A stretch of DNA of 64,000 nucleotides from Bacillota bacterium (GTDB lineage: Bacteria > Bacillota > Clostridia > Christensenellales > SZUA-584): the NCBI GenBank assembly GCA_023428025.1, contig JAEYZN010000031.1:8948-72947 (forward strand), in the 5' to 3' direction. The notes beneath the pieces were generated by a model, which was given only the letters and a program-made list of their open reading frames with translations, did not search any database and had not been told where the DNA came from. The translations under genes were made by a program, and so were the position numbers. This document shows, piece by piece, positions 12,545-37,821 of this stretch (the first letter of the stretch is position 1; each line of letters starts with the position of its first letter).

Positions 12545-12587
12545 AGACCATCTGTGAATATATCATGGATAGATTTGAGGTGAAAAC

Positions 12588-13498: not shown

Positions 13499-13506
13499 AT
13501 TGTCGC

Positions 13507-13527
13507 TGGCGGAGAGCGTGGGATTCG
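13507..13527 (-). repeat. direct-repeat copy of the tRNA-Ser 3' end (island boundary, att remnant)
   Basis: tggcggagagCgtgggattcg compared with tggcggagagAgtgggattcg at 36265-36285. Identity is 20/21, in the same orientation. Confidence 0.8.
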
Positions 13528-19363: not shown

Positions 19364-19720
19364 ATGAAGAAGTATTGCATGGTTAATGTCATCAAACAGG
19401 AGTATCTGGTTGCTTATATTGAGGCGCATTTAAATCCATGGGAGGAACTGCTCACATGTCTTAAGGAGGCGGGGACACATGAAGAGTGGATATACATGTA
19501 TAAAAACCTTGCCATTCTTTTTATCGAATGCGAAGACATGGATATGTACGTTGAAAAATTTGCAAAAAGCGAGACGGGAAAGAAATGGCTCAAAAAAATG
19601 TCTGAATATCTGGAATTCACAGAATTTGCGGACGATTCAGGTCAGGCAAAAAATTCGCCCGTCAGCTTAAGAAAAGTTTTCGATCTCAATGAGCAGCTTA
19701 GGGGCCATATAATGGATTAA
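19364..19720 (+). CDS. rhaM: L-rhamnose mutarotase-family protein
   Basis: H.NPW.E....LK..G.H...IY, LFIE.E, W...M and NSPVSLRKVFDL parallel E. coli RhaM (HNPIWPEL..., NSPVSSELQEVFYL). ATG 19364 follows GAGGAA. Confidence 0.65.
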   Translation: MKKYCMVNVIKQEYLVAYIEAHLNPWEELLTCLKEAGTHEEWIYMYKNLAILFIECEDMDMYVEKFAKSETGKKWLKKMSEYLEFTEFADDSGQAKNSPVSLRKVFDLNEQLRGHIMD

Positions 19721-19792
19721 TAGCCGTTTCACGAAATAAATTTGCTGACGTTGAAAAATATGTTTGCCGGACCCGGCAGAAAGGTGAGAGAA

Positions 19793-21178
19793 ATGATGAC
19801 AATGAAAAAACCCAGAGCATTAATTGTTCCTTGCAGGTGGATAGAAGGAAACCCCGTCGACGTGATTGACGCTCAGATTAAGTCCGCTTTGGAATTAATC
19901 AATAAAGCAGACATCGATTACGATGTGACAGACATGGTGGTGTATGATAAAGACGCGAATTCAATAAGGCAGAAATATAATGCGGCCAATTATGACTTCT
20001 CAATTATCATTATACCGACTTGGCTTGAGCCAATGCTCCCCATAAGAGCGATCAAGGATTTCCTGAATAAACCCATTGTCGTGTGGGGGTTCGGGACATT
20101 TAATCAATATGGAAAGCGTGTGGATATGGGTTCTATTCCGGGGTCGGGCGTGTTAAAAGGGACGCTTCGGGAAATGGGAGTGGAACATGAATACTTGTAT
20201 TATCTCCCGGGCAACGAAAAGACCGATCAGATAATGTTGACCAGATTAAGAAAGATTGCAAATGTTGCAAGAGCCATTTCGATGCTGGACAAGGCAAAAA
20301 TTGCTTCCATCGGCTATCTTTTTGGCGGTATGACGCTTGGAGATATTGATACTACCAAGATGAACACAGTTTTTGGTCCGGAACTTATGGAAAAGGACTT
20401 GTATTCATTGATCAGGGAAATGGAATCAATTGACGTTTCCGGCCAGGATTATGCTGACACCAGGAAATTTGTTGAAGGACATTTTAAAGCAAGCATAGGT
20501 GACAGAATCGACAAGGCGGTCAGGATGTATATGGTTCTGAAAAACTATGTGGATGATTACAATCTGGCCGCGATTACAGTGAAATGTCATTTTGAGTTAA
20601 GTGTTGAATATGGACAGACGGCTTGCATACCTTTATCAGTTTTAGGAAACTCGGTCGTGGCCGCCTGTGAATCCGACATACCCGTATTGCTAACCCAACT
20701 GGTCATGACCTATCTTTCCGGGGGGAAGAGTTCAGCATATGTCGACCTTCATGAAATCTCAGAGAAAGGACTGCTGATCGGCGCATGCGGATATGCCCCA
20801 TCCAGCATGTGCATCGGAAAGAAAATTGCATGCGGATGCTGCAATCCGGGTGATCAGGCTTCGGATAATTCATATAACGGATACATAACGAATATGAGCC
20901 ACTTGGATAAAGGCAAAGTGACGATCGGTCGCATCCTGAAAGAAAAAGATGGCGGATTTGCACTGCACTATACGACAGGCGATGCGGTTGGTGATATTGG
21001 CCAAATGAACCAATACGGACTTCCCCAATTCGCCTTCACCGAGGTTGTTCTGGATTCCGGGGTCGACAGGTTTGCTCAAAGCCTGGGAAGCCATCATTAC
21101 GCGGTCGTTTATGAGGATCTTCGTGATGAGTTTGACCTGTTCTGCCGATATAAGAATATTAAAAATCTAAAATATTAA
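19793..21178 (+). CDS. L-fucose isomerase-like protein (FucI/AraA superfamily), specificity unknown
   Basis: About 461 aa. The VVAACESDIPVL block resembles FucI ATENDSLN, and the C-terminal half has the isomerase-superfamily layout. Paralogous by eye to the genes at 24841, 26405 and 11144. Confidence 0.6.
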   Translation: MMTMKKPRALIVPCRWIEGNPVDVIDAQIKSALELINKADIDYDVTDMVVYDKDANSIRQKYNAANYDFSIIIIPTWLEPMLPIRAIKDFLNKPIVVWGFGTFNQYGKRVDMGSIPGSGVLKGTLREMGVEHEYLYYLPGNEKTDQIMLTRLRKIANVARAISMLDKAKIASIGYLFGGMTLGDIDTTKMNTVFGPELMEKDLYSLIREMESIDVSGQDYADTRKFVEGHFKASIGDRIDKAVRMYMVLKNYVDDYNLAAITVKCHFELSVEYGQTACIPLSVLGNSVVAACESDIPVLLTQLVMTYLSGGKSSAYVDLHEISEKGLLIGACGYAPSSMCIGKKIACGCCNPGDQASDNSYNGYITNMSHLDKGKVTIGRILKEKDGGFALHYTTGDAVGDIGQMNQYGLPQFAFTEVVLDSGVDRFAQSLGSHHYAVVYEDLRDEFDLFCRYKNIKNLKY

Positions 21179-21201
21179 GAGCAACTGCCGTGCATAAATA
21201 C

Positions 21202-21237
21202 AATCAGATTCCTTAACTTGCATTAAGGAATCTGATT
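21202..21237 (+). other. perfect 15-bp intercistronic hairpin without U-tract
   Basis: aatcagattccttaa (21202-21216), loop cttgca, ttaaggaatctgatt (21223-21237). Lies between the FucI-like gene and rhaA. Confidence 0.8.
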
Positions 21238-21267
21238 CATAAATCTGTATGAATGGCGAGGAAGACA

Positions 21268-22527
21268 ATGGACGAAAAAAACGTAATAATAGGGTTCCAG
21301 TATGCGAAGGCTCTGTATGATGATCTTGGCATCAATGTGGAAGACGCGATGAAAAAAGCGGATACCATACCGGTATCCATGCATTGCTGGCAAGGTGATG
21401 ATCTGATTGGTTTTGATGGCATAGGTGAATTAACGGGCGGAATTGCTGCGACCGGCAATTTTTTTGGCCGTGCGCGGACGCCTGACGAACTGAGAAAGGA
21501 TATTGATGAAGCCTTAAAGCTGGCACCTGGAGAGAAGAAGCTCAATCTGCATGCATGTTATGCTGAAAAGCAAAACAAACATGTGAATCGCGATGAGATC
21601 ACCATAGAGCTTTTCCAAAACTGGGTGGATTGGGCGGCCCAACGGAATCTGGGCTTGGATTTCAACCCCACATTTTTCTCACATCCGATGATGGACGGGG
21701 ATCTGTCGCTGGCCAGTCCGAAGGAAGACAAAAGGAAATTCTGGGTCGAGCACGGAAAACGCTGCCGTGAAATTGGCCTAGAATTTACGAAAAGACTTGC
21801 AAAACCGTGCATAGTAAATTACTGGATGCCGGATGGCTATAAGGATAACCCTGCCGATACAGTCAGGCTGCGCGCTTTGATGACGGATTCACTTGACGAA
21901 ATATTCGAAAAGGATTTTCAGAGTACGCTGTTAAAGGAATCGCTTGAAAGCAAACTGTTTGGTTTTGGTCTTGAAAGCTATACCGTTGTAAGCCATGAAT
22001 ATGCGCTTGGCTATGCGATCACGAGAAATAAGTTGTATTGCCTTGACGCGGGACATTTCCATCCCACGGAGACAATAAGCTCAAAGCTTAGTGCGCTCGT
22101 GCCTTTCGTGAAAGGCATCATGCTACACGTCAGCCGCGGCGTCCGCTGGGACAGCGATCATGTTGTGCTACTGGATGACGAGCTACAAAGAATCATGGAC
22201 GAAATCGTCCTGAATGCCTATGAAGGCAGAGTCAACATCGGTCTGGATTATTTTGACGCATCAATCAATAGAATCGTCTGCTGGGTCATCGGTATGCGCA
22301 ATACCAGAAAAGCGATATTAAGCTCATGCCTCGCGCCCATAGAGAAGGCGCGATTAGCCGAAAGGAATGGGGACTATACAGCGAGAATCGCGCTTATGGA
22401 GGAAAGAAAGCTTCTGCCCGTGGGAGCGGTTTGGGATTATTACTGCATGACGCGAAATGTGCCGGTAGCAGAAGACTGGCTCAAGGATGTCAAACAGTAT
22501 GAATGCGATGTACTGTCAAAGAGATAA
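21268..22527 (+). CDS. rhaA: L-rhamnose isomerase
   Basis: PVSMHCWQGDD, LNLHA, LGLDFNP, ESKLFG.G.ESYTV, LDAGHFHPTE, HVSR.VRWDSDHVV.LDDE and GLD.FDASINR match E. coli RhaA block for block. Start 21268 aligns with the E. coli N-terminus. Confidence 0.92.
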   Translation: MDEKNVIIGFQYAKALYDDLGINVEDAMKKADTIPVSMHCWQGDDLIGFDGIGELTGGIAATGNFFGRARTPDELRKDIDEALKLAPGEKKLNLHACYAEKQNKHVNRDEITIELFQNWVDWAAQRNLGLDFNPTFFSHPMMDGDLSLASPKEDKRKFWVEHGKRCREIGLEFTKRLAKPCIVNYWMPDGYKDNPADTVRLRALMTDSLDEIFEKDFQSTLLKESLESKLFGFGLESYTVVSHEYALGYAITRNKLYCLDAGHFHPTETISSKLSALVPFVKGIMLHVSRGVRWDSDHVVLLDDELQRIMDEIVLNAYEGRVNIGLDYFDASINRIVCWVIGMRNTRKAILSSCLAPIEKARLAERNGDYTARIALMEERKLLPVGAVWDYYCMTRNVPVAEDWLKDVKQYECDVLSKR

Positions 22528-22573
22528 CGGCCTGAATTGTGAATGACGAGGCCATAGGGAAAGGCATTATTTG

Positions 22574-24112
22574 ATGAGGTACTATTTAGGGCTTGACAAC
22601 GGGGGGACAACGACAAAAGCCGCGCTCTTCAATCAGAAAGGCGAGGAAGTCTGCGTGGCGTCCACAGAAACACGGATGCTCATTCCGCAGCCGGGTTTTA
22701 TCGAGCGGGACATGGAGGAGATGTGGGGGGCAAATTGTCAGGTCATTAAGCGCGTTATCAAAAGCTCTGGAATCGATCCCAAAAATATCGCCGGCGTAGC
22801 AGTATGTGGTCACGGCAAGGGGCTCTATCTGTGGGGCAAAAACGGCAGACCTGCCCGTCCCGGTATTATTTCCACAGACAACAGGGCGTATGAATACCCG
22901 CTGCGCTGGAAGGAAAACGGAGTGGAGCCGCTTGCGTTCAAGCTATCCTACCAGCATATTCTCGCCTGCCAGCCGGTATCGTTGTTAGCTTGGTTACTCG
23001 ACAATGAACCGGAAGTTACAGACAATATAGAGTGGATTTTTGAATGTAAGGATTATATCCGATTTCGCCTGACCGGCGAGGCGTATGGGGAAATCACTGA
23101 TTATTCAGGAACCAGCCTGATCAATCTGTATACCGGAACGTATGACGACAAGTTAATCGGTCTTTTTGGCCTTGAAAAATTGAGGAAAGCATTGCCGCCG
23201 CTGCGTAGATCAATGGATATATGCGGCTATGTAACCGGGGACGCCGCCGCGGAATGCGGCCTTACTGCCGGGACGCCAGTTGCGGGCGGGATGTTTGATA
23301 TCGACGCGTGTGCCGTGGCGGTCAATGTGCTGTCCGAAAAGAACATTTGTATGATTGCCGGTACGTGGAGTATCAACGAGTATATACGCAGAGAACCGGT
23401 GGTAGACGGTTCCATCCTCATGAATTCGCTGTTCTGTCTGCCGGGCTATTATCTGATAGAAGAATGCAGTCCGACGTCGGCAGGAAATAACGAATGGTTT
23501 ATTAAAACGTTTTTGCAGGAAGCCATTAAGTTGGAACGAATTAACGGTGAGAGAATATATGACCAGATTAACGAAAATGTCGGGAGGATTCCGGCTCAGG
23601 AGTTTTGCCCAATCTTTTTTCCCTTTCTGATGGCGAGCAATGTGCACCCGAACGCCAAAGGATGTTTTCTGGGCATAAGCAACTATCATACGCGGACCCA
23701 CTTTCTACGCGGCATTTACGAGGGAATAGCCTACTCCCACAAGTACCACCTTGAGAAGCTTCTGCGTACGACTCCCGCCGCGCCCGAGAGCATACGTTTA
23801 GCCGGCGGTGTAGCCCATTCCAAGGTATGGACGCAGATATTTGCTGATGTGACGGGATTCCCTGTTGAAACCGTCAAGGTGAACGAGACCGGCGCGCTTG
23901 GCTGCGCCATCGCCGCGGCGGTAGCGGTAGGAGATTATGCTGATATTATGGAAGCGGCAGATAATATGTGTTCCATCGCACACGCTGTTGAGCCTATAAG
24001 CGCTAATATTTCAGCATATCAGGAAAAATATGAACTCTACATGAAATCTATATTTGCCCTTGATGCTGTATGGGATGACTATAGAAACCTATATGAAAGG
24101 ATGGTGATTTGA
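22574..24112 (+). CDS. lyxK: FGGY-family kinase, L-xylulose/3-keto-L-gulonate kinase (LyxK) type
   Basis: YYLGLDNGGTTTKAALF, PQPGFIERDMEEMW, ECSPTSAGNNEWF, FFPFLMASN and HTRTHFLRGIYEGIAYSH parallel E. coli LyxK (WLGLDCGGSWLKAGLY, EASPTSSGNLEWF, HTRAHLLQAIYEGVVFSH). It is unlike RhaB. Confidence 0.75.
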   Translation: MRYYLGLDNGGTTTKAALFNQKGEEVCVASTETRMLIPQPGFIERDMEEMWGANCQVIKRVIKSSGIDPKNIAGVAVCGHGKGLYLWGKNGRPARPGIISTDNRAYEYPLRWKENGVEPLAFKLSYQHILACQPVSLLAWLLDNEPEVTDNIEWIFECKDYIRFRLTGEAYGEITDYSGTSLINLYTGTYDDKLIGLFGLEKLRKALPPLRRSMDICGYVTGDAAAECGLTAGTPVAGGMFDIDACAVAVNVLSEKNICMIAGTWSINEYIRREPVVDGSILMNSLFCLPGYYLIEECSPTSAGNNEWFIKTFLQEAIKLERINGERIYDQINENVGRIPAQEFCPIFFPFLMASNVHPNAKGCFLGISNYHTRTHFLRGIYEGIAYSHKYHLEKLLRTTPAAPESIRLAGGVAHSKVWTQIFADVTGFPVETVKVNETGALGCAIAAAVAVGDYADIMEAADNMCSIAHAVEPISANISAYQEKYELYMKSIFALDAVWDDYRNLYERMVI

Positions 24113-24113
24113 C

Positions 24114-24812
24114 TTGCTGGAACAACTGAAAGAGGATGTGCTGGCGGCAAACCTGCTTCTTTCACGATACGGATTGATTGTTTTAACATGGGGAAATGTA
24201 TCCGCCATTGATCGAAGAGCAGGTTTGGTCGTCATCAAACCAAGCGGTATGGAATATTCTGAAATGAAAGCGGAGGACATGGTCGTTGTAGACTTGGACG
24301 GTAATATTGAAGAGGGCGTGCGGCGCCCGTCATCGGATCTCGCAACGCACCTAGAGCTGTACCGCAATTTTAAGAATATTGGGGGAATTGTTCATACGCA
24401 TTCAAGAATGGCTACGGCTTTTGCCCAAGCCGAACGCAGTATACCCTGCTATGGAACCACGCATGCCGATTATTTTTACGGAGAAATTCCAGTAACACGC
24501 AAGCTAACGCCTTTAGAAATAAAAAACGACTATGAGCTTAATACGGGTAAAGTCATCGTTGAATCTTTTAAAACCATTTGCCCGGAGCATATGCCTGCCG
24601 TATTAGTCAGCAAGCATGGGCCATTTACATGGGGCAAAAACGCTTTAAATGCGGTGGAAAATGCGCTGGTCCTTGAAGAAGTCGCGGAAATAGCATACCG
24701 CTCCATCTCTATAAGCAGTGATATCACACCTGCTCAAAAGGATCTGACAGATAAGCACTTTTTCCGGAAGCATGGAAAAAATGCTTATTATGGCCAGATT
24801 AATATCCAATAA
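24114..24812 (+). CDS. araD: L-ribulose-5-phosphate 4-epimerase (AraD/SgbE type, class II aldolase fold)
   Basis: MLEQLKEDVLAANLLL...LTWGNVSAIDR...VIKPSGM.Y..M...DMVVVD...PSSD..TH..LY...IGGIVHTHS...TTHADYFYGEIP is near-colinear with E. coli AraD. TTG start. Confidence 0.9.
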   Translation: MLEQLKEDVLAANLLLSRYGLIVLTWGNVSAIDRRAGLVVIKPSGMEYSEMKAEDMVVVDLDGNIEEGVRRPSSDLATHLELYRNFKNIGGIVHTHSRMATAFAQAERSIPCYGTTHADYFYGEIPVTRKLTPLEIKNDYELNTGKVIVESFKTICPEHMPAVLVSKHGPFTWGKNALNAVENALVLEEVAEIAYRSISISSDITPAQKDLTDKHFFRKHGKNAYYGQINIQ

Positions 24813-24840
24813 AAAATTATATTTAAAAAGGAGAAGGATT

Positions 24841-26340
24841 ATGAATATACCTTTAACCAAAAAACCCCTTCAGCCCCGAGTCGGAATTTATTCAGTCGGT
24901 TTAAAAGCCTATTGGCCGCAGTTTGAGGGATTACGCGAACGTCTGATTAGATATGGAAAGTTTATTGAGAATCGTATCTCCGCTGATGCCAGTGTATTCA
25001 ATTATGGGATGGTGGACTCATCGGATGAAGCGAGAAAAGCAGGGGAATGGTTTAATTCACATAACGTTGACATTGTGTTTTGTCATGCGGCAACTTATTG
25101 CTCGAGCGACTGCGTTCTTCCGGTTCATCAGATTTGTAAAGCGCCTTTTGTCGTTTTGAACCTCCAGCCGGCAGCAAGGGTTAATTATGCCAAAACCAGC
25201 ACTGGCGAATGGCTTGCTCATTGTGGCGCATGCCCGGTTCCTGAGTTTTCGAATGCCTTTAATCGAGCTGGTTTAGGTTTCGAATCAATCAACGGACTGC
25301 TGGGACTGGATAAGTCGCCCGAAATATCCGTGACGGACGAAGTTACGAATGAGCGCCCTGAGGCGATAAAAGCGTGGAGGCAGATACGCGAATATGTGAA
25401 GGCTGCAGGCGTTAAAAGAATGCTCCAGCACGCGCGGTTTGGCTTTTTGGGCAATACGTTCAACGGAATGCTGGACATGTACAGCGATTTGACAATGCTG
25501 CAGGGCCAGCTGGGTATTCATGTGGAAATCATAGAAATGAGTAATCTCTATCACTATTTTAAGACGGTCACAGACGAGGAGATAAAGGAAAAACAAAACC
25601 TGATCAACGATTTCTTTATCATTTCGGGCGATTCGGCCGCTGATCCCATTACAAAAAAACCAACCGCAGAACAACTGGAATGGTCAGCGCGGGTAGCAGT
25701 GGCTCAGGAAAAAATGGTTAGAGACTACGATTTGGATGCATTAACTTATTATTATCACGGCGCGGATGATGATATATTCGAACAAATACAGGGAGGGTTT
25801 ATCGTCGGTCATTCACTTTTGACGGCATCCGGCATACCCTGTGCGGGAGAAGGGGATATCAAAACCAATGCCGCAATGAAAATATGCGATTATCTTAATG
25901 TGGGCGGTAGTTACAGTGAAATCGTAACAACGGATTATATGGATGGCACCATTCTCCTTGGGCACGATGGCCCGTTCCATATTGCAATATCTAATAAGAA
26001 GCCGATTCTCAGGGGCATGAAACTCTATCATGGCAAACGCGGCCTTGGCGTTTCCGTGGAAGCGAAAGTGGCTCCGGGTCCCATCACCACCTTGGGTGTG
26101 ACTCAGAACCATGGGGGTTCCCTGAAAATGATCATCAGTGAAGGCGAAGCGACTGATGGGGAGATTATGCAGGTTGGGAATACACAGACACCTGTGAGAT
26201 TTTCTGTTGACCCCGACACATATTTCTATAAGTGGTTCAAAGAAGCGCCCACACATCATTGCGCGATGTCGGTGGGACACAATGCAGAACTGTTCACCAA
26301 AGTGGCGACAATGATGAATATACCCTGTTGCGTGCTGTAA
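24841..26340 (+). CDS. AraA-like sugar isomerase paralogue 1, specificity unknown
   Basis: 499 aa from ATG 24841 (AAAGGAGAAGG upstream). GIPCAGEGDIKTNA and LLGHDGPF blocks, which correspond to AraA GEGDWKTA / GSHMLE. Confidence 0.65.
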   Translation: MNIPLTKKPLQPRVGIYSVGLKAYWPQFEGLRERLIRYGKFIENRISADASVFNYGMVDSSDEARKAGEWFNSHNVDIVFCHAATYCSSDCVLPVHQICKAPFVVLNLQPAARVNYAKTSTGEWLAHCGACPVPEFSNAFNRAGLGFESINGLLGLDKSPEISVTDEVTNERPEAIKAWRQIREYVKAAGVKRMLQHARFGFLGNTFNGMLDMYSDLTMLQGQLGIHVEIIEMSNLYHYFKTVTDEEIKEKQNLINDFFIISGDSAADPITKKPTAEQLEWSARVAVAQEKMVRDYDLDALTYYYHGADDDIFEQIQGGFIVGHSLLTASGIPCAGEGDIKTNAAMKICDYLNVGGSYSEIVTTDYMDGTILLGHDGPFHIAISNKKPILRGMKLYHGKRGLGVSVEAKVAPGPITTLGVTQNHGGSLKMIISEGEATDGEIMQVGNTQTPVRFSVDPDTYFYKWFKEAPTHHCAMSVGHNAELFTKVATMMNIPCCVL

Positions 26341-26404
26341 ACAGGGATATGTCTGGAATAAAGAGAAAGGAGATATATGAAATATAATTCATATAAATAG
26401 TAAT

Positions 26405-27817
26405 ATGCAGTATTTAAAGGGTAAAGTAGGCCTGATGGCAATTGGCTTAGATGCATATTGGGTACAATTCGGCGATATGAAAAACAAAATATTGGGCTAT
26501 TATGAAAGCATTGAAAATAAAGTTTCGGAATATGCTGATATTGTTTCAGTGGGTTTGGTTGATAATGCCGAAGCTGCGCGCAAAGCAGCCGCCAGTTTTA
26601 GAACAGAGGATGTGGATGTGGTGTTCTGCCACTGCGCGACGTACTGTCCGTCTGACCGGCTGATATTAGCCGTCAAGGATATCGACGTCCCCGTTGTTCT
26701 GCTTAATATCCAGTCGGTTAAAGCGCTGGATATGAGCACGATAAAAGAAATTCCGGACTTTCTTTCGGATGGGTGCACATGCGCCTGTCTACCGGAAATG
26801 ACTGCGGCTCTGGCTCGCTTTTCGAAAAGATTTGATGTGATAACCGGATACCTTACCGGCGATGCAGAAACGAATCAGGCGCTTCAGTCCTGGTGCGTAG
26901 CAGCCTCCGTCCGCAGGTGTCTGCGGTACCGGAATATTGGCTTCGTGGGCCATGCGTTTTCGGGAATGCTGGATATTTATGTCGACGAAGTAGAACTGCT
27001 TAACACTCTGGGCATTTATACGCACCATATAGAATTCAACGATATCATCGATGAGGCCAAACAGGCGTCAACCACGGATATCGGCTTGTGGGACAAAAAG
27101 TTCGCAGATGTTTTTGGAAAGGAAGAACGGGGCGATATCAACGTGCTGTGCCGTTACACGGAAGCGCTTCAAAGAATTACCAATAAACTATCACTGTTTG
27201 GAGTGGCCTGTCACTATGCAGGAAATTATCAGGTGGAAGAGGAAATGGTGTCAGCATTGAACCCTGCGTTTTCCATGCTGATGAAAAGCAGAATCGCCTG
27301 TACGGTTGAAGGTGATATTCAGGCGGCTGTTGCCATGTTCATTCTGAAAAGAATACTGGGATCTGCAATGCTTGCCGAATTGTATTCGATGGATTTTAAC
27401 GATCAGACATGCATCATCGGACACAGCGGAGCGGGTGATCCGGATGTTTCCGATGAGACGCCTTTGCTGAAAGAATCAAACGTATTCCACGGCAGAAAGG
27501 GGAAGGGCTACCTGACCCAATTCTATCCGAAAGCCGGGCCGGTCACTCTGCTCGCACTTTCACGGGATGACCAGGGTTTCAAACTTGTTGCCGCCGAAGG
27601 GATCTGTGAGAAAGGCGCTACCATGTCCATTGGCGACACGAATTGCAGAGTCAGATTTGAGGGCGGTTTGCGGAATTTTGTAAATGAGTGGGCAAGCAAA
27701 GGCCCGTCGCATCACAGCGTGCTGGGTATCGGACATGATCTGGATACCATCAAACGGGTGGCGATGGTATTGCGCCTTCCGCTGAGTATCGTTACCGTCG
27801 GCAGCCTGGGTACATAA
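26405..27817 (+). CDS. AraA-like sugar isomerase paralogue 2, specificity unknown
   Basis: 470 aa. RIACTVEGDIQAAV and IIGHSGAGDP blocks. The N-terminus KGKVGLMAIGLDAYW parallels PRVGIYSVGLKAYW of paralogue 1. It has no SD of its own (see the mini-ORF finding). Confidence 0.65.
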   Translation: MQYLKGKVGLMAIGLDAYWVQFGDMKNKILGYYESIENKVSEYADIVSVGLVDNAEAARKAAASFRTEDVDVVFCHCATYCPSDRLILAVKDIDVPVVLLNIQSVKALDMSTIKEIPDFLSDGCTCACLPEMTAALARFSKRFDVITGYLTGDAETNQALQSWCVAASVRRCLRYRNIGFVGHAFSGMLDIYVDEVELLNTLGIYTHHIEFNDIIDEAKQASTTDIGLWDKKFADVFGKEERGDINVLCRYTEALQRITNKLSLFGVACHYAGNYQVEEEMVSALNPAFSMLMKSRIACTVEGDIQAAVAMFILKRILGSAMLAELYSMDFNDQTCIIGHSGAGDPDVSDETPLLKESNVFHGRKGKGYLTQFYPKAGPVTLLALSRDDQGFKLVAAEGICEKGATMSIGDTNCRVRFEGGLRNFVNEWASKGPSHHSVLGIGHDLDTIKRVAMVLRLPLSIVTVGSLGT

Positions 27818-27851
27818 GATTTGAGGCTCTGGAACAAAATAGACAACTGTC

Positions 27852-27892
27852 GAACACGCATGCGTGGAAACACGTCATGCGTGTTCTTTTAT
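27852..27892 (+). terminator. intrinsic terminator after the isomerase genes
   Basis: gaacacgcatg (27852-27862) / catgcgtgttc (27876-27886) with an inner cgtg-gaaa-cacg, followed by ttttatt. Confidence 0.75.
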
Positions 27893-27981
27893 TGCAAAAA
27901 AGTAAACATTCTACTCAAAATATAATAAAGACTTTGGGTCGCGCCAAATCTATAATCAAAAAATAAGTGATCAAGAATCAC
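27892..27981 (+). promoter_or_regulatory. candidate activator-dependent promoter P2 (upstream of the island ABC importer)
   Basis: GCAAAA at 27894 and TCAAAA at 27915 (21 bp apart), TAAAGACTT at 27926-27934, TATAAT at 27951-27956 and palindrome GTGATcaagaATCAC at 27967-27981. Offsets are identical to P1 (repeat to TATAAT = 57 nt in both). Confidence 0.55.
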
Positions 27982-27999
27982 AATTAAAGGAGGAAATCA

Positions 28000-29037
28000 A
28001 TGAAGAAACTAATGGAAATTGCCATTGCGGTGTTGCTGGTCTTAGTGGTTGTGATTGGTTGCTCGGCTCCGGCTGAGAAGTCCGCTGCTTCAGAACCGGC
28101 AACGGAAAATGTGCAACCGGCCGAAGCTCCTGCCGAACAGCCAAACGAGCAATCTTCCGAAGAACCTGTAGGCAATGATAAGCCGGTTATCGGCATTTCT
28201 GTTTCCGGATTTGCGGCTCCGTATTTCAAAGCTTTGATAGCTGCAGCAGAAATGGAAGCCGAAGCGCAGGGGGTTGAATTAAAAGTGCTTGACGCCGAAT
28301 GGGATTCGCAAAAACAGGCAACTCAGGTTGAGAGCCTTATTGCTGCAGGATGTGACGTCATTGAAATCATTCCGTGCGACTCCACTGCGATTATTCCGAC
28401 AATGGAAAAAGTCAATGCGGCAGGTATCCCTCTGGTTGTGGTAAACACCCAGCATGACCCGGCATCCGAAGACCTTATTGTCACATTCGTTGGCGCGAGC
28501 ATGGAAGATGAAGCTGCGATGGCTGCGGAAGCGGTAAAAGAGATTCTTGGCGCTGAAGGCGGCAAGGTTGTGATCGTTGAAGGCGCAGCCGGTTCATTTC
28601 CTGCAATCCATAGAACAAGCGGGTTCTTGGCAGCCATTGAAGGCGCAAACATTGAAGTGCTTGCGAACCAGAATGCTGGCTGGGACAGAGCGACGGCTAT
28701 GGCGGTAATGGAAGACTTCCTGACGGCGTATCCCGATATCGATGCACTGTACGCGCATGACGACAACATGGTCATCGGTTGCATTCAGGCGATCAAAGAT
28801 GCCGGCAGAGAAGATGAGATTAAGGTCGTCTCGATCAGCGGAACAATTGAAGGCTATGATGCAATCCGTAACGGTGAATTGTACAGCACCGTCTCGCAAC
28901 CGCCGGATTGGGAAGGCATGATGGCTGTCCAGGTCGCGGTTGGCATTTTGAACGGCGAAGAATACCCCAAATGGGTAAAAACACCGATCGCTCAGGTTAC
29001 AGCGGAAAACGTTGACAAATTCAAAGGCGTTTGGTAA
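28000..29037 (+). CDS. ABC sugar transporter substrate-binding lipoprotein (SBP-1)
   Basis: 345 aa. Lipobox VVIGC/SAP with an acidic/Pro linker. GFAAPYF, DALYAHDD and STVSQPPDWEG blocks are shared with the protein at 33780. Confidence 0.8.
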   Translation: MKKLMEIAIAVLLVLVVVIGCSAPAEKSAASEPATENVQPAEAPAEQPNEQSSEEPVGNDKPVIGISVSGFAAPYFKALIAAAEMEAEAQGVELKVLDAEWDSQKQATQVESLIAAGCDVIEIIPCDSTAIIPTMEKVNAAGIPLVVVNTQHDPASEDLIVTFVGASMEDEAAMAAEAVKEILGAEGGKVVIVEGAAGSFPAIHRTSGFLAAIEGANIEVLANQNAGWDRATAMAVMEDFLTAYPDIDALYAHDDNMVIGCIQAIKDAGREDEIKVVSISGTIEGYDAIRNGELYSTVSQPPDWEGMMAVQVAVGILNGEEYPKWVKTPIAQVTAENVDKFKGVW

Positions 29038-29157
29038 AGGGTTATGGTTGGGTAAACGCGGAAACGCGTATACCCAACTCTTTTTCAATGTATTGTTAAG
29101 GTGAAATTAATAAAGTTAATTATTATTTGAGCGACATATTGCAGGTGGGAAATAGTG

Positions 29158-30648
29158 ATGAAACAAAATATGATACTTGAATTAAAGAATGTAAGCAAGA
29201 GTTTTCCCGGGGTTAAAGCGCTGGATGATGTTTCATTTGAACTGATGAAAGGTGAGGTTCATGCTTTATGCGGTGAAAACGGCGCCGGTAAATCCACTCT
29301 CATGAAGATCCTGTATGGGGTTTATCATCTGGATTCAGGACAGATATGGATCAAGGGCGAAAAAAAAGATATTGAGTCTCCGCTGGTGGCACAAGCCAAC
29401 GGCTTAAGCATAATATTTCAGGAGTTCAATCTGGTGGAAACACTGTCAGTTGCTGAGAACATATATCTTGGCCGATTGAGAGTGCAGAAGGGAAAAGTGG
29501 GCTGGAAAACGATCCACGCGAATGCAAAGGAGTTACTCTCCCATATTGGATGTGATATTAATACTAGACTGCTAATAAGCGAACTGAGCATTTCGCAGAA
29601 GCAAATGGTGGAGATTGCCAAAGCGCTATCATATAACGCCGAGGTAATCGTGATGGACGAACCTTCCGCGACGTTGACGGAAAAGGAAGTTGAAAATCTT
29701 TATAAAATCGTCGCGGAGCTCAAAACGAAGGGAATCAGCGTTATCTATATATCTCACAAGCTTGAAGAGGTCTTTGATATCTCCGACAGGGTATCAGTGC
29801 TCAGAGACGGAAAGCTGGTCTGCACAGATGAGACAAAGAATCTTGATAAACAGAAAATCATTGGCCACATGGTGGGGCGTTCGTTTGATCAAGAATTCCC
29901 ATCCAGGGGGAGCTGCTGCGGTGAAGAAGTATTGCGTGCTGAAAATATTGTGCGCAGAGGTGTTCTTAAAAACATCAGTATTAATCTAAACAAGGGGGAA
30001 GTACTTGGTTTGGCAGGTTTGGTTGGTGCTGGCCGAACGGAATTGGTGCGTGCAATTTTTGGTGCTGACAAGTTTCGGAGTGGTACCATTATGATACATG
30101 GCAGGAAAGTAGCAATACGAAAACCAATTGACGCAATAAAAAACAAAATTGCGCTTGTGACAGAAGATAGAAAGGACCAAGGCTTGATACTTAAATTTCC
30201 AATCAAGCTAAACATTACGATTACTGATCTGAAGAGGATAGTTAATTTTGGGCTGATTAACAAAAGAAAAGAAGTTGCTTTTGCAAACGAATATGCGAAG
30301 AAACTGTCAGTGAAGACACCAAGCATCAACCATAAATGCATAAATCTATCTGGCGGGAATCAGCAAAAAGTGGTTCTGGCAAAGTGGCTATTTGCAAACG
30401 CAGATATATTGATACTGGATGAACCGACGAGAGGTATTGATGTTGGCGCAAAACACGAGATCTATTTGATTATCAATGAATTGGTACGACAAGGAAAATC
30501 TGTAATACTAATATCTTCAGAACTTCCAGAGGTACTGGCGATGAGTGACAGGATCGTTGTATTGCATGAGGGCGAAGTAAAAGGAGAGTTTGACAATCGA
30601 GAAAGACAAGTGGTTGCCGAGCAGATAATGCTCTGCGCAATTGGGTGA
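29158..30648 (+). CDS. sugar ABC transporter ATP-binding protein (duplicated NBD)
   Basis: GENGAGKSTLMK, VIVMDEPSATL, LSGGNQQKVVLAKWL and LILDEPTRGIDVGAK. Confidence 0.9.
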   Translation: MKQNMILELKNVSKSFPGVKALDDVSFELMKGEVHALCGENGAGKSTLMKILYGVYHLDSGQIWIKGEKKDIESPLVAQANGLSIIFQEFNLVETLSVAENIYLGRLRVQKGKVGWKTIHANAKELLSHIGCDINTRLLISELSISQKQMVEIAKALSYNAEVIVMDEPSATLTEKEVENLYKIVAELKTKGISVIYISHKLEEVFDISDRVSVLRDGKLVCTDETKNLDKQKIIGHMVGRSFDQEFPSRGSCCGEEVLRAENIVRRGVLKNISINLNKGEVLGLAGLVGAGRTELVRAIFGADKFRSGTIMIHGRKVAIRKPIDAIKNKIALVTEDRKDQGLILKFPIKLNITITDLKRIVNFGLINKRKEVAFANEYAKKLSVKTPSINHKCINLSGGNQQKVVLAKWLFANADILILDEPTRGIDVGAKHEIYLIINELVRQGKSVILISSELPEVLAMSDRIVVLHEGEVKGEFDNRERQVVAEQIMLCAIG

Positions 30649-31649: not shown

Positions 31650-32611
31650 GGTTAAGGAAAATGGAAACCACTTTAAAAAGACTGAGTAAAAAACTGTTCA
31701 AAGAAAAGATTCTGGTAGCGGGTATCGGGTTTTTTATCGCGGTAGCAATCGTCAACCCACCTTTTCTGACAATTGAAAACTTATCCAACCTGACAATTCA
31801 AATATCATTATATGGAATTGCGGCAATCGGGATGACATTTGCGATTATCGGTGGAGAGTTTGATTTGTCGATCGGATCTATGATATCTTTGTGCGGTGTA
31901 TTGGTAGCGGTTTTCTATCCGATTTTTGGGCTGGGCCTGTCATTGATCATCGCTGTTATTTCTGGAATTTTGCTAGGAGTTATCAATGGTTTGCTGGTTG
32001 CAAAGGCTAATATCAATGCATTTATCGTAACGTTTGGTGGAATGATTACATATAAAGGGCTTGCGCTGACGTTTGCAGATGGCAGGCCGGTAATTTGTCA
32101 AAGTGAAGCGTTGAATTATTTTGGAGATATGCGCGCGGGTGGCATCCCGATTATGTTTCTAATTTTCCTTGTGTTGCTGGCTATTAGTGTTTATTTACTA
32201 GGGTATACGCGTTTTGGCCGCAATGTTTATGCGGTTGGCGGAAATATTGACGTAGCCGCGGCAACTGGGCTGAATACCTGGATTTACAAATTCGCCATAT
32301 TTGCGATTAACGGTCTGGCGGCGGCGGTTATCGGCATATTAATGACGGCGCGACTCAACACAGGTTCTCCGGTTATGGGAGATGATATCACACTGACCGT
32401 TATCGCAAGCGTTGTTTTGGGTGGAACAAGCCTGTCAGGAGGCAAAGGTAATACATTCCGGACGTTGCTTGGTGTGGTTGTGATGATGATGCTGGCCAAT
32501 GCGTTTGACCTGCTCGTGATCCAGCCATATATTCAAAAGGTTATCAAAGGGCTTATCATTATCGCTGTTGTGGCTTTCGACAGCTATAATAAGAAAAAGC
32601 TGATTGTTTAG
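31646..32611 (+). CDS. sugar ABC transporter permease 2
   Basis: Multi-TM with the GGNIDVAAATGLN block. ATG 31646 overlaps the upstream stop (ATGA); the alternative start is ATG 31661. Confidence 0.8.
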   Translation: MRLRKMETTLKRLSKKLFKEKILVAGIGFFIAVAIVNPPFLTIENLSNLTIQISLYGIAAIGMTFAIIGGEFDLSIGSMISLCGVLVAVFYPIFGLGLSLIIAVISGILLGVINGLLVAKANINAFIVTFGGMITYKGLALTFADGRPVICQSEALNYFGDMRAGGIPIMFLIFLVLLAISVYLLGYTRFGRNVYAVGGNIDVAAATGLNTWIYKFAIFAINGLAAAVIGILMTARLNTGSPVMGDDITLTVIASVVLGGTSLSGGKGNTFRTLLGVVVMMMLANAFDLLVIQPYIQKVIKGLIIIAVVAFDSYNKKKLIV

Positions 32612-32763
32612 AATTTTCCGCAGTAAATGATATTTCTCACAAAACGTAGCGGTGAACTTTAGGGTCTCATCGCTACACACTTATATAATGAATGACTTTT
32701 TAAAATGAGGGATCCTTGGCCTGTGGCGTATATGCAAAAAAAATATGGGATAGCAGGTATAAA

Positions 32764-33768
32764 ATGAGACAACTGGCATTTTACTTCTTTTTAATATTGG
32801 GGTTGCTGGTTTCTTTGGCAGGATGCGCGCCGCTGGATAATAGAGATGCAACCGAAAAAAAAATTGAAGAGACGACCATATCGAGTGAATCTGTGGTGGA
32901 ATACGTGGAGATATGCAGCACAATCACTATTGGCGTTGCCTTGCTGGATGAGGAAAATTTATTCATTTCGCAACTCAAAAAGGCAATGAGCCAAACTGCG
33001 GATGACGTAGGAGTGGTTCTGATATTCAAGAATGGCAAGAATAATCCGCAAAAGCAGGTGAAGCATGTGGAGGAATTTATTTCGCAGATGGTCGATATTA
33101 TAATCCTCAACGCAGCCTCTTATTCTGACTGCGCTCCTGCGGTTGATTTAGCCGTACAAAAGGGTATTCCCATCGTGACGGTGAACACCAAAGTGGAAAA
33201 TCAATATAAGTGTGAGTCTTTTATCGGCTCTGATGCTGTTCAATCGGGGCGTTTACAACTGCAAAGTGTAGCAAATGTTTTTGACGGAAAGTGCAGCTTT
33301 TTATACTTAAAAGGTCCGATTGGCCATGAAGCGGAGCTTGGAAGAAAAATCGGGATGAATGAGATTTTATCGCAGTTCCCCGATATGCATTTGATTTATG
33401 AACAGTCTGCAAACTGGAGCATGTCGGAAGCGTATATTATTACTAAAAACAGCCTCGCGACGTATGATAAAATTGACGCTGTTGTAGCGCAAAATGATGA
33501 AATGGCGCTCGGAGCCCTACAGGCAATCAATGACGCCGGTAAGTCAGGGCAAATCAAAGTGTTCGGTATTGATGCGATACCGGAAGCTCTGCAAGCTATC
33601 AAGGAGGGGGAGATGGAATCCACCGTTCTTCAAAACGCAGATATACAGGGGAAAGAGGCCATATTGGCAGCGAAAAGCATAGCGTTGGGTAAAAAAGTTA
33701 AAAAAGAAATAATGATTTCCTATAAGCTTATAGATAAAGAAAACATTAATTTTTATTTAAGTGAGTGA
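32764..33768 (+). CDS. sugar-binding lipoprotein (SBP-2, distinct from SBP-1/3)
   Basis: MRQLAFYFFLILGLLVSLAGC/AP lipobox. Type-I PBP body with VVAQNDEMALGA and KVFGIDA blocks. Confidence 0.75.
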   Translation: MRQLAFYFFLILGLLVSLAGCAPLDNRDATEKKIEETTISSESVVEYVEICSTITIGVALLDEENLFISQLKKAMSQTADDVGVVLIFKNGKNNPQKQVKHVEEFISQMVDIIILNAASYSDCAPAVDLAVQKGIPIVTVNTKVENQYKCESFIGSDAVQSGRLQLQSVANVFDGKCSFLYLKGPIGHEAELGRKIGMNEILSQFPDMHLIYEQSANWSMSEAYIITKNSLATYDKIDAVVAQNDEMALGALQAINDAGKSGQIKVFGIDAIPEALQAIKEGEMESTVLQNADIQGKEAILAAKSIALGKKVKKEIMISYKLIDKENINFYLSE

Positions 33769-33779
33769 TCAAGGTGTTG

Positions 33780-34754
33780 ATGAAACGTATTTTGTTTTTT
33801 GTTATTACTTGTATGATTTTATTAAGCGGATATGGCTGCAAACAGAGTATTACTGAAAACCAAACTGACCCTTATGTTGCAAGACGCATTCAGTCAGGTA
33901 AAAGCATTGGATTTTCGGTGGCGGGTTTTGCAGCGCCATATTTTAGCGTATTGATAGACTATGCAAAGCTTGAAGCCTTAGAAAATGATGTATATCTTTA
34001 TGTGAAGGATGCGAAGTGGAATACCGTTCAGCAATCAGCGGATATTGATGAGTTTATCGGTCTTGGCGTTGATGCCATTTGTGTGATACCAATTGATTCC
34101 AAGCAAATCATACCTTCTTTTGAGAAAGTAAAAAAGGCAGATATACCGCTTATTGATGTTAACGTACAGCACGATCCGCAGGCAGAGGGCTTGATTGACT
34201 GCTTTGTCGGTGCCAGCATGACCAAGCAAGCCGCAATGGCGGCTGAGTCGTTAATGGGGCTGATGAAAGAAGATGATACAAACATAATTATGCTGGAAGG
34301 GGCGGCAGGGAATTTTGCTACAATTGGAAGAGCAAAGGGATTTGAAGAGATGATTGCCGGAACCAGATTTAAAATAATCGGCCGCGCATACACAGGCTGG
34401 GAAAAAGATAAAGCGGAAGAAATAATGAAAGAAATGCTTGAAAAATATGATGATATCGATGCGCTGTATGCGCATGACGATGATATTGCAATAGGAGCAA
34501 TACAGGCGATAAAGGCTTCCGGACGGGCAGGAGAGTTCCCGATAGTTTCCATATCAGGGAATATTGACGGCTATGAAGCGATTAAACGAGGCGAGATATT
34601 AAGCACCGTATCGCAGCCTCCGGATTGGGAAGGAATAATGGCAATACGTGTGGCAATTGATCTGATGGAGGGGAGAGAAGTAAAAAAGTGGATTGAAACC
34701 CCTGTTGCGCTGGTTACAAAAGAGAATGTATCGGAGTATAAGGGACTCTGGTAA
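33780..34754 (+). CDS. sugar-binding lipoprotein (SBP-3, paralogue of SBP-1)
   Basis: MKRILFFVITCMILLSGYGC/KQ lipobox. GFAAPYF, DALYAHDDD, STVSQPPDWEG and a ...KGLW C-terminus are colinear with the protein at 28000-29037. Confidence 0.8.
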   Translation: MKRILFFVITCMILLSGYGCKQSITENQTDPYVARRIQSGKSIGFSVAGFAAPYFSVLIDYAKLEALENDVYLYVKDAKWNTVQQSADIDEFIGLGVDAICVIPIDSKQIIPSFEKVKKADIPLIDVNVQHDPQAEGLIDCFVGASMTKQAAMAAESLMGLMKEDDTNIIMLEGAAGNFATIGRAKGFEEMIAGTRFKIIGRAYTGWEKDKAEEIMKEMLEKYDDIDALYAHDDDIAIGAIQAIKASGRAGEFPIVSISGNIDGYEAIKRGEILSTVSQPPDWEGIMAIRVAIDLMEGREVKKWIETPVALVTKENVSEYKGLW

Positions 34755-34825
34755 GCGTTTAATAAGCAAAGAGAAGGTCAAACAGGTGCCTATCAAAAAG
34801 TTACACAAGATAGATAAAAAATGAT

Positions 34826-34852
34826 AAAGAGCTGGCAGCTCTTTTTATTTTA
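34826..34852 (+). terminator. intrinsic terminator after the ABC/SBP genes
   Basis: aaagagc-tggca-gctcttt followed by ttattttat. Confidence 0.6.
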
Positions 34853-34971
34853 TATTGAAAAACAGTATCGAATTGGTACAGTTCGATAAAATACATCGGG
34901 CATTCCTTAGATACCTACATTTATGACAGGCCGGAATTAGAATAAACTTAAAAAAGGATTGTAAAATAGAA

Positions 34972-35822
34972 ATGATAGCGCGAAATGAACAGCTTGGCCT
35001 TTATGAAAAAGCAATTCCATACGAAACAGATTGGAAAACAAAACTGGTCTCGGCAAAAGAAGCGGGCTTTGACTTTTTCGAAATCAGCATTGATGAGTCG
35101 AAAGAGCGGATGCTAAGGCTCGACTGGGATATGAGCCAAAGAAAAGAGTTGGTCAATGCAAGCCTTAAAGCCGGACTTCAGATCCGCACAATGTGCTTAA
35201 GCGGACACCGCAAGTATCCGCTTGGCAGCGGGAAAAAGGAAATAGAAAATAAATCGCTTGAGATTATGAAAAAAGCCATTGATTTAGCAGCTTTCATTGG
35301 CGTGCGTATTATCCAAATAGCAGGATACGATGTTTATTATGATGAGCAGTCTTGCCCTGAGACGAGAGAACGTTTCGCATTGAATTTGGAAAAAAGTGTG
35401 GAGATGGCGTCGCGCGTGGGTATTATCTTGGCGCTGGAAACAATGGAAAACGACTTTATGAATACGGTGAAGAAAGCAATGAAGTTTGTGAGCATGATTA
35501 ATTCTCCGTATTTAAAGATTTATCCCGATTCGGGCAATATTGCGAACGCTGTGCGTGATGTTCGAACTGACATTATGTATGGAGATGGACATATTGTCGC
35601 CGCGCACTTGAAAGAAACAAACCCCGGCGTATTTCGCGAAGTGCCGTATGGAATGGACATGTGGATTTTGTTGAAGCGATAAAAGCATATAAAAAGGTTG
35701 GAGTCAATATGTTTCTTGCGGAGTTTTGGTGCGTAAATGGAAGTAATTGGAGGAAGATATTAAAGCAATACAATCAGTTTTTGAGGAACAAAATAGAACT
35801 AGCAAATAGATCTGAGAATTGA
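34972..35822 (+). pseudogene. sgbU: L-xylulose-5-phosphate / L-ribulose-5-phosphate 3-epimerase (UlaE/SgbU type) with a 1-nt frameshift
   Basis: LGLYEKA.P, GFDF.E.S.DE..ER..RLDW, MCLS.HR..PLGS, IQ.AGYDVYY and YPD.GN are colinear with E. coli UlaE. Frame 1 stops at 35682 (VPYGMDMWILLKR*). The next frame continues as NGHVDFVEAIKAYKKVGVNMFLAEFW... to 35822. The junction is at 35650-35655 (ggaatgga where ggaaatgga is expected). Confidence 0.75.
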
Positions 35823-35835
35823 GACTAAAAACGCC

Positions 35836-36218: not shown

Positions 36219-36264
36219 TCCTGCTAAAAGAAAAATCACAAGGCATGAATATACCTTGTGATCA

Positions 36265-37818: not shown

Positions 37819-37821
37819 AGC

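Follow-up and report, generated by a model that had tools for sequence, protein, structure and literature searches.

A tRNA-associated genomic island in a Bacillota bacterium that may channel several pentoses through one LyxK-type kinase

The contig JAEYZN010000031.1 of a Bacillota bacterium assigned by GTDB to the Christensenellales (SZUA-584; assembly GCA_023428025.1) was analysed over a stretch of 64,000 nucleotides (positions 8,948 to 72,947 of the forward strand), referred to here as the window and numbered from its first letter. Between approximately 13.5 and 36.3 kb the window harbours a sugar cluster that forms a low-GC island of ~22.7 kb: the guanine-plus-cytosine (GC) fraction is 0.39–0.51 between 14 and 36 kb as against 0.53–0.64 on either side, and all genes from 15.2 to 35.8 kb lie on the plus strand and are tightly spaced (Table 1). 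The cluster encodes a three-gene sensory system, a mutarotase related to RhaM, four aldose-ketose isomerases (one RhaA and three others named Iso1, Iso2 and Iso3), a single kinase of the FGGY family, a 4-epimerase, an ATP-binding cassette (ABC) importer of the CUT2 type with three binding proteins (SBP1, SBP2 and SBP3) and a 3-epimerase gene that carries a frameshift. Family assignments are based on NCBIfam and Pfam models, and gene starts follow the calls on record for identical contigs. This assemblage is tentatively read as a funnel through which several monosaccharides, most likely aldopentoses, converge on central metabolism, an interpretation held with somewhat less than even confidence.

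Table 1. Positions of the genes and other features of the sugar island and its borders in the window.
Feature	Position	Strand	Basis
Left direct repeat, copy of tRNA-Ser 3' end (21/22 nt)	13506..13527	+	repeat search
Sensor histidine kinase: dCache_1, HAMP, His_kinase (PF06580), HATPase_c	15218..17014	+	domain search
Response regulator with AraC-type helix-turn-helix output domain	16989..18194	+	domain search
Periplasmic-binding-protein-fold protein	18195..19115	+	Peripla_BP_4, 99 bits
Distant RhaM-family mutarotase	19364..19720	+	Pfam PF05336, 48.8 bits (cut-off 23.4)
Iso1, AraA/FucI-fold aldose-ketose isomerase, rare family	19793..21178	+	model NF048012, predicted structure
RhaA-family isomerase (L-rhamnose isomerase family)	21268..22527	+	NF002203, 603.8 bits (cut-off 572)
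LyxK-type FGGY kinase, predicted L-xylulose or pentulose 5-kinase	22574..24112	+	homology, tree
L-ribulose-5-phosphate 4-epimerase, AraD/SgbE/UlaF orthologue	24114..24812	+	NF006047, 359 bits (cut-off 257)
Iso2, AraA-type isomerase	24841..26340	+	conserved AraA residues
Iso3, Iso2 paralogue	26405..27817	+	conserved AraA residues
Terminator-like hairpin between enzyme and transporter genes	27858..27884	+	consensus scan only
SBP1, ribose-type (CUT2) sugar-binding lipoprotein	28000..29037	+	
CUT2 ABC ATPase, two ATP-binding domains	29158..30648	+	
Two CUT2 permeases	30675-31649, 31661-32611	+	
SBP2, sugar-binding protein	32764-33768	+	
SBP3, sugar-binding protein	33780-34754	+	
UlaE/SgbU-type L-xylulose-5-phosphate 3-epimerase gene, two frames (34972-35682 and 35661-35822)	34972..35822	+	NF009689, 303 bits (cut-off 200)
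Short broken open reading frames similar to the C-terminus of a large serine recombinase (candidate fragments)	35830..36240	+	read from translations
tRNA-Ser(TGA), 3' end toward island	36265..36354	-	right repeat copy 36264-36285

The sole FGGY kinase of the window is most closely related to Escherichia coli LyxK (NC_000913), with 37% identity and 328 bits, compared with 142 bits for LsrK, 112 for XylB and 51 for RhaB. It passes no curated equivalog: the best models are those of XylB (232 bits) and LsrK (200 bits), and the scores against the rhamnulokinase (RhaB) and ribulokinase (AraB) models are 57 bits (cut-off 528) and 111 bits (cut-off 428), respectively. In a neighbour-joining tree whose references were limited to seven E. 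coli FGGY paralogues (LyxK, XylB, RhaB, AraB, FucK, LsrK and GlpK), the kinase and its relatives, which are ~65% identical and mostly clostridial, cluster with LyxK in 100% of 300 bootstraps. This placement had been proposed as a check in an earlier interpretation of the locus, made from the nucleotide letters and their translations and designated here the sequence-only reading, and it bears out the LyxK rather than RhaB type that had been ascribed to the kinase. By homology the enzyme is predicted to phosphorylate L-xylulose, or a pentulose, at C5. The family is large, with 3,981 homologues at E≤1e-30, found mainly in Clostridia; the kinase was retrieved by exact look-up with an ATG start, and not with a TTG start. 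Automated annotation had been expected to describe such a cluster as rhamnose utilisation. Instead, the records of homologues read 'L-xylulokinase' (JGI) or 'carbohydrate kinase' (NCBI) for the kinase family and 'L-fucose/L-arabinose isomerase family' for the isomerases.

The RhaA-family isomerase is 50% identical to E. coli RhaA and qualifies as an orthologue (604 bits against a cut-off of 572), which would supply the step from L-lyxose to L-xylulose, although its sequence bears no sign of specialisation. As the sequence-only reading had stated, RhaA enzymes isomerise L-lyxose, an activity that is general in the family (review PMC11485043). The closest relatives of the window protein (61% identity) are RhaAs encoded beside RhaB and RhaM, and the hydrophobic loop residues of the E. 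coli enzyme are kept. The possibility that RhaAs adjoining LyxK-like kinases constitute a subclade of their own, or have lost the loop, was considered and found no signal. L-rhamnulose has no distal primary hydroxyl on which a LyxK-type kinase could act, and for this reason the RhaA of the island probably serves a non-deoxy substrate such as L-lyxose. The mutarotase is a distant member of the RhaM family: it falls short of the TIGR02625 equivalog (31.5 bits against a cut-off of 99.6) and shares 30% identity with E. coli RhaM over 95 aa. A perfect palindromic hairpin with a 16-bp stem (21202-21237), situated in the 75-nt gap between the Iso1 and RhaA genes, may serve as an internal attenuator or as a site of RNA processing.

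The 4-epimerase is 56–59% identical to SgbE, AraD and UlaF of E. coli and, like the UlaE/SgbU-type 3-epimerase, exceeds the curated cut-off for its family. Homology supports a putative core in which the LyxK-type kinase would act on a ketopentose and would be followed by UlaE and then AraD. The genes listed in the sequence-only reading, namely the RhaM-like, RhaA, kinase, AraD/SgbE-type and UlaE/SgbU-type genes, are all five located where it had placed them. Its inventory was nevertheless incomplete, as it omitted Iso1, Iso2 and Iso3, the CUT2 importer, the system of sensor, histidine kinase and AraC-type regulator, and the frameshift in the 3-epimerase gene.

The genes missing from the locus are equally instructive. 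Twenty-five E. coli reference proteins were compared with the whole 64-kb window by tblastn, and beyond the genes described above no match was obtained for RhaB, a second FGGY gene, RhaD, FucO, FucI, SgbH, UlaD, YiaK or XylA. Rhamnose enzymes are also missing from the flanks according to Pfam annotation, which discloses unrelated functions there. The absence of RhaB and RhaD asserted by the sequence-only reading therefore extends across the window; with regard to the lactaldehyde enzymes that it had likewise reported as absent, FucO has no match in the 64 kb and AldA was not queried directly. Consequently, the window contains no canonical L-rhamnose operon, lacking RhaD and FucO and having as its only FGGY gene a kinase far below the RhaB cut-off. 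A canonical L-arabinose operon, which would include orthologous AraA and AraB, is not present either: Iso2, Iso3 and the kinase are all below the respective cut-offs. The ascorbate or 2,3-diketo-L-gulonate route (Ula or YiaK-S) is ruled out for the window by the lack of any UlaD, SgbH or YiaK match, UlaG not having been queried. As SgbH/UlaD and YiaK are absent, L-xylulose-5-phosphate would have to arise by direct phosphorylation of L-xylulose.

The best support for a module leading from L-lyxose via L-xylulose to D-xylulose-5-phosphate is provided by an unrelated contig in which the four-enzyme set recurs. This locus (L075; Logan SRR29870296, 807-12320) encodes a LacI regulator, RhaA, an IU-nucleoside-hydrolase-family protein, a Bmp/PnrA-type ABC system with binding protein, a LyxK-like kinase, UlaE and AraD; identity to the window proteins is 65% for the kinase, 56% for RhaA and 49% for UlaE. 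It has in common with the window RhaA, the kinase and the 3- and 4-epimerases, and differs in lacking AraA/FucI-type isomerases, in its Bmp/PnrA-type transporter, in the glycoside/nucleoside hydrolase and in possessing an intact UlaE. Its gene content points to a glycoside or nucleoside-like compound that would deliver its sugar into the same L-xylulose-type trunk. Partial combinations occur elsewhere: kinase, UlaE and AraD stand together in one locus (L005), RhaA is followed by a LyxK-like kinase on a Christensenellaceae chromosome (L022), UlaE precedes the kinase in polyol-type clusters (L076, L079) and the kinase is found alone in two further loci (L003, L004).

These observations bear on the interpretation advanced by the sequence-only reading, that of a dedicated L-lyxose/L-xylulose route in which RhaA, the LyxK-type kinase, UlaE and AraD produce D-xylulose-5-phosphate and the other isomerases are accessory or unrelated. 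The clustering of the kinase with LyxK, the action of RhaA enzymes on L-lyxose (PMC11485043), the lack of SgbH/UlaD, RhaB and RhaD in the window and the recurrence of the four genes in L075 without AraA/FucI-type isomerases all speak in its favour. Such a dedicated route would, however, leave three catalytically plausible isomerase genes unexplained within the operon, of which one separates rhaM from rhaA and two come straight after araD, as well as three binding proteins for a single translocator, and the frameshift affects precisely the L-xylulose-specific step. The route is therefore sustained as regards its enzyme families and the recurrence of the module, and weakened by the broken 3-epimerase and the surplus of isomerases and binding proteins; as a full account of the island it is regarded as unlikely.

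The lesion in the 3-epimerase gene is a 1-nt deletion near position 35652. The first frame stops at 35682 after '...PYGMDMWILLKR', and insertion of one A at 35652 (GGAATGG to GGAAATGG) restores a protein of 283 aa that is collinear with UlaE (284 aa) and SgbU (286 aa). The product actually encoded amounts to 236 aa: the break occurs at residue 228 of ~283 and the C-terminal 53 residues are in another frame. Past the break lies the Glu of the conserved 'L(I/A)E(M/F)W' motif, which the repaired protein displays in a 'LIEMW'-type form and the 236-aa protein lacks; this residue would correspond to E251 of UlaE, its fourth metal ligand. Four contigs, drawn from ENA, Logan and NCBI-derived assemblies and including ENA ERZ27268830 and Logan SRR13347293, have the truncated product on record, which indicates that the lesion is present in the data themselves and was not introduced by a single assembler. 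The window thus holds an orthologue of UlaE/SgbU, in truncated form, and no intact one. As the frameshift removes the catalytic metal-binding Glu, the L-xylulose branch, and with it the use of L-lyxose, is probably inactive or decaying in this strain unless a paralogue elsewhere compensates. The L-ribulose branch, composed of isomerase, kinase and AraD, is still encoded intact, and with UlaE broken only substrates that yield L-ribulose (or D-ribulose) would continue to enter central metabolism here.

The three additional isomerases are remote from characterized enzymes. Iso2 and Iso3 are 28% identical to one another and each ~18–20% identical to E. coli AraA, and they score 43 and 37 bits, respectively, against the AraA equivalog (cut-off 622). 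Residues E306, E333, H350 and H450 of E. coli AraA, which have metal-binding or catalytic roles, are kept in both proteins and in 20 sampled members of the Iso2 family; on the strength of these four positions Iso2 and Iso3 belong to the AraA/FucI superfamily, and Iso1 joins them on the basis of its predicted structure. Iso1 has no Pfam match, and its nearest curated model is that of the sulfoquinovose isomerase SftI (NF048012), against which it scores 92.9 bits with a cut-off of 700. Its AlphaFold model (pLDDT, the predicted local confidence score, 90.9) aligns in Foldseek with L-arabinose and L-fucose isomerase structures at a template-modelling (TM) score of ~0.8, and an hhalign comparison of the Iso1 family with E. 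coli FucI returned a probability of 13% confined to the N-terminal region. Sequence searches of the PDB yielded no usable relatives for any of the three.

The families differ greatly in size. That of Iso1 is rare, with 63 homologues at E≤1e-10, usually adjoining an FGGY kinase gene. A metagenome scan with Iso1 alone as query gave no match; with the family alignment it gave 34 loci, none with the full cluster, and a kinase neighbour was recorded at 11 metagenome loci. A relative of the host (L070; ENA ERZ27268947 k141_5089, 1-3924) carries the C-terminal part of RhaA at the contig start, an Iso1 that is 75% identical and two binding proteins in a gene order different from that of the window, and a downstream LOG-family gene of this contig matches window positions 45854-46023. 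The Iso2 family is huge and 65–70% conserved across phyla. Its gene adjoins or is close to that of Iso3 in 7 of 17 related loci, and its contexts are otherwise varied: alone with an AraC regulator, inside rhamnose and fucose clusters, or with other kinases. In three contigs of Christensenellaceae metagenome-assembled genomes (L014, L018 and L019) an Iso2-family gene occurs within canonical RhaB/RhaM/RhaA clusters, once together with FucI and FucU, as an unexplained extra isomerase.

These features invite a different interpretation, in which the island is a composite for L-sugars of plant cell walls: Iso2, with or without Iso3, would be a non-orthologous L-arabinose isomerase, the LyxK-like kinase would serve as L-ribulokinase, AraD would complete the arabinose pathway, and RhaM and RhaA would feed L-rhamnulose to host rhaB and rhaD located elsewhere. 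UlaE would then be dispensable, which would explain its decay and the toleration of the frameshift. The order kinase, araD, Iso2, with gaps of 1–28 nt, resembles an ara operon, AraA catalytic residues are kept in Iso2, Iso2 relatives reside in the rhamnose clusters of Christensenellaceae mentioned above, and the RhaA of the window is closest to RhaAs of rhamnose clusters. In addition, Rodionov et al. predicted AraI, a non-orthologous L-arabinose isomerase, beside rhaA in Caldicellulosiruptor, where rhaA is apart from rhaB and rhaD (PMC8579813). Equating the Iso2 family with this AraI (Athe_0707) is no more than a lead: the Iso2 homologue of C. hydrothermalis (P0215, L028) has no AraR site and an upstream region unlike the published araI alignment, and a literature search on Csac_0877, Athe_0707 and TM0951 found nothing relevant. 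The kinase, moreover, belongs with LyxK and is no AraB orthologue, the binding proteins are not of the RhaS type, and having an acquired island rely on rhaB and rhaD of the host makes for a less parsimonious account. This composite is deemed improbable to the same degree as the dedicated route.

The nearest models for the CUT2 ATPase are those of xylose, arabinose and ribose systems, every score being below cut-off, and the importer components as a whole are nearest to these pentose systems; the binding proteins bear little likeness to the RhaS model for rhamnose (cut-off 342), against which SBP2 scores 56 bits and SBP3 gives no match at E≤1e-10. This affinity is relevant to the proposal that the island handles rare hexoses, with RhaA and the AraA/FucI-type isomerases generating ketohexoses (D-psicose, D-tagatose, L-fructose and others), the kinase acting at C6 and the epimerases converting hexulose-6-phosphates to fructose-6-phosphate. 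AraA enzymes convert D-galactose to D-tagatose, and E. coli LyxK accepts the six-carbon 3-keto-L-gulonate as well, phosphorylating it at C6. Conversion of D-allose, L-mannose and D-gulose is known for RhaA enzymes (PMC11485043). Nonetheless, a hexose funnel of this kind is at odds with the pentose-like transporter, with AraD and UlaE scoring above curated cut-offs as orthologues of pentulose-5-phosphate epimerases, and with the absence from the window of aldolase, PfkB kinase and tagatose-pathway genes, and it is considered very improbable.

Upstream of the enzymes lies the putative sensory system. In Clostridium beijerinckii, XylFII-LytS-YesN accomplishes sugar sensing with a sensor binding protein, a histidine kinase and an AraC-type regulator. 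The same three-gene architecture next to a CUT2 ABC operon is found in the window, and it is also shared with the gxgX-gxgRS sensing system predicted in Caldicellulosiruptor (PMC8579813), both comparisons being based on domain content alone. Since its gene abuts that of the response regulator and the architecture matches gxgX-gxgRS, the periplasmic-binding-protein-fold protein probably acts together with the sensor and not as a binding protein of the transporter.

That a single kinase is supplied by four isomerases and three binding proteins implies a convergence of several substrates on one trunk, and this is the essence of the convergent funnel favoured here. The architecture suggests that the sensor binding protein, the histidine kinase and the AraC-type regulator would switch the operon on; the single translocator with its three binding proteins would then import more than one sugar, and the RhaM-like mutarotase would provide the right anomer. 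The four isomerases would yield 2-ketoses, RhaA converting L-lyxose to L-xylulose and Iso1, Iso2 and Iso3 converting L-arabinose and/or other pentoses to L-ribulose, L-xylulose or D-ribulose, after which the LyxK-type kinase would phosphorylate the distal primary hydroxyl. The 3-epimerase would turn L-xylulose-5-phosphate into L-ribulose-5-phosphate and the 4-epimerase would turn the latter into D-xylulose-5-phosphate, an entry point into the pentose-phosphate pathway. Pentoses are favoured as substrates by the fact that only in pentuloses does inversion at C4 turn the L-series into the D-series. The most abundant candidate substrate is L-arabinose, taken through an AraA-type isomerase, and the gene order kinase-araD-Iso2 is reminiscent of an ara operon. 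L-lyxose would be one branch, now probably disabled in this organism, and an L-ribulose branch, for instance from L-arabinose, would remain.

A more far-reaching version envisages that RhaA, Iso1, Iso2 and Iso3 each take a different aldopentose (L-lyxose, L-xylose, L-arabinose, L-ribose or D-arabinose), served by the three binding proteins, one broad pentulokinase and the pair of epimerases ending in D-xylulose-5-phosphate. This 'all-L-pentose' form is distinctly improbable. If true, Iso1–3 would define new specificities in the AraA/FucI superfamily, and L-lyxose/L-xylulose catabolism would be native and operon-encoded in anaerobic Firmicutes.

A number of considerations weigh against the convergent funnel. 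The identities and family placements of the genes, the conserved catalytic residues, the frameshift, the borders of the island and the recurrence of the module are observed; every substrate, the phosphorylation site and the regulatory logic are deduced. The 3-epimerase, the sole L-xylulose-specific step, is frameshifted. By sequence the RhaA of the island is indistinguishable from the RhaAs of rhamnose clusters, and a role in rhamnose metabolism is possible; the kinase family includes members that stand alone or in polyol-type clusters, and LyxK itself accepts a six-carbon substrate. The Iso2 family appears in too many settings to point to one pathway. Finally, as L-lyxose, L-xylose and L-ribose are rare in nature, the selection that would maintain such a funnel is not obvious.

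The island displays the features of a tRNA-targeted genomic island: deviant base composition, a neighbouring tRNA gene and, on both flanks, direct repeats that copy the 3' end of that tRNA. The tRNA-Ser repeat has two matches in the window (13506 and 36264), where 0.00 would be expected by chance, and the GC fraction drops from 0.56 to 0.39 at the left copy, which probably marks the left boundary. From the low GC, the tRNA-Ser gene and the 21/22-nt repeat at 13506 it follows that the island integrated at the tRNA, and the catabolic island spanning 13.5 to 36.3 kb was gained by horizontal transfer. No intact integrase or recombinase was found for it; between the epimerase gene and the tRNA there are only short broken reading frames, whose translations suggest candidate recombinase fragments. 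A chimeric assembly is ruled out, as the junctions are identical in the ENA and Logan assemblies and the island is flanked by tRNA-derived repeats.

The eroded margins raise the question of whether the island is a non-functional, decaying relic, a combination of genes that no longer means anything for the physiology of its host. All copies of the 3-epimerase gene on record carry the frameshift, the recombinase is reduced to fragments and the left end (13.5–15.2 kb) contains no intact genes. Against such decay stand the sixteen other genes (~20 kb), all full length and intact, the preservation of catalytic residues and the identity of the island sequence in ERZ27268830 and SRR13347293 over the stretches covered, although these two assemblies may share source data. 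Of all the interpretations considered, a relic is the least probable.

The surroundings of the island contain further genes of interest. A second rare-sugar cluster of host-like high GC adjoins it on the left (2101-13262) and includes a LacI regulator, a CUT2 ABC system, a glyoxalase-like gene, a short-chain dehydrogenase/reductase and, on the minus strand, a Zn-alcohol-dehydrogenase-like gene, together with a xylose-isomerase-like TIM-barrel protein (8677-9576), an AraA-family isomerase with 25% identity to E. coli AraA (11006-12544) and a D-lyxose isomerase cupin (12588-13262; PF07385, 318 bits). A further segment of foreign origin may make up the first 2 kb of the window: positions 1-2000 are also low in GC (0.38), and the reading frame at 477-1919 encodes a lipoprotein-like protein of 480 aa with a GC fraction at third codon positions of 0.33. 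The host genes immediately to the right of the tRNA, which have no relation to the island, encode an AraC regulator with a PocR domain and then a protein with a B12-binding domain (36568-38457). Farther along, three tandem serpin genes on the minus strand (46536-50306; 412, 412 and 427 aa, each ~290 bits to PF00079) form an array that is unusual for bacteria.

Viewed against known systems, the island resembles parts of several. 'L-lyxose degradation' is a pathway listed in MetaCyc. In E. coli, L-lyxose is used through LyxK, SgbU and SgbE, according to the passage of PMC6958661 that cites Sanchez 1994 and Ibanez 2000. With RhaA as the entry enzyme, this route comprises four families, all of which are present in the window, and the same product, D-xylulose-5-phosphate, is predicted; whereas the E. 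coli genes are split between rha and the cryptic yiaK-S and a regulatory mutation is needed, those of the window form one operon-like island in a high-GC, Firmicute-like genome. The island lacks YiaK, the tripartite ATP-independent periplasmic (TRAP) transporter YiaMNO and SgbH, and adds three AraA/FucI-fold isomerases, a CUT2 importer with three binding proteins and two-component control, and its 3-epimerase is frameshifted. With the canonical L-arabinose pathway (AraA, AraB, AraD) it shares a neighbouring AraA-fold isomerase, a pentulose kinase and AraD, the last a clear orthologue; its isomerases, in contrast, are far below the AraA equivalog cut-off and its kinase is of the LyxK clade rather than AraB. 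The canonical L-rhamnose operon (RhaA, RhaB, RhaD and RhaM with RhaT or RhaSTPQ) has a RhaA orthologue and a distant RhaM-family protein as counterparts in the window, which is devoid of rhamnulokinase, rhamnulose-1-phosphate aldolase, a RhaS-type binding protein and, within the limits of the search already described, a lactaldehyde enzyme.

The pathway logic is thus known from the LyxK/SgbU/SgbE route of E. coli; the organization in a single island, the host lineage, the extra isomerases, the importer with multiple binding proteins and the two-component control distinguish the island from it. No paper describing a native L-lyxose/L-xylulose cluster of this kind was found in the literature, and in a survey of 2011 a few Gammaproteobacteria were the only organisms assigned LyxK function (PMC3245297). 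Should the module operate in the predicted manner, a pathway for which E. coli regulatory mutants are the only known source would here exist natively and be encoded in an operon, and LyxK function would extend beyond the Gammaproteobacteria to a large family found mainly in Clostridia. The frameshift illustrates that pathway prediction from gene content can fail exactly at the diagnostic step. The three uncharacterized AraA/FucI-fold isomerase families, one of them huge and one very rare, are candidates for new aldose specificities, with a bearing on the carbohydrate ecology of the gut and rumen and on the enzymatic production of rare sugars.

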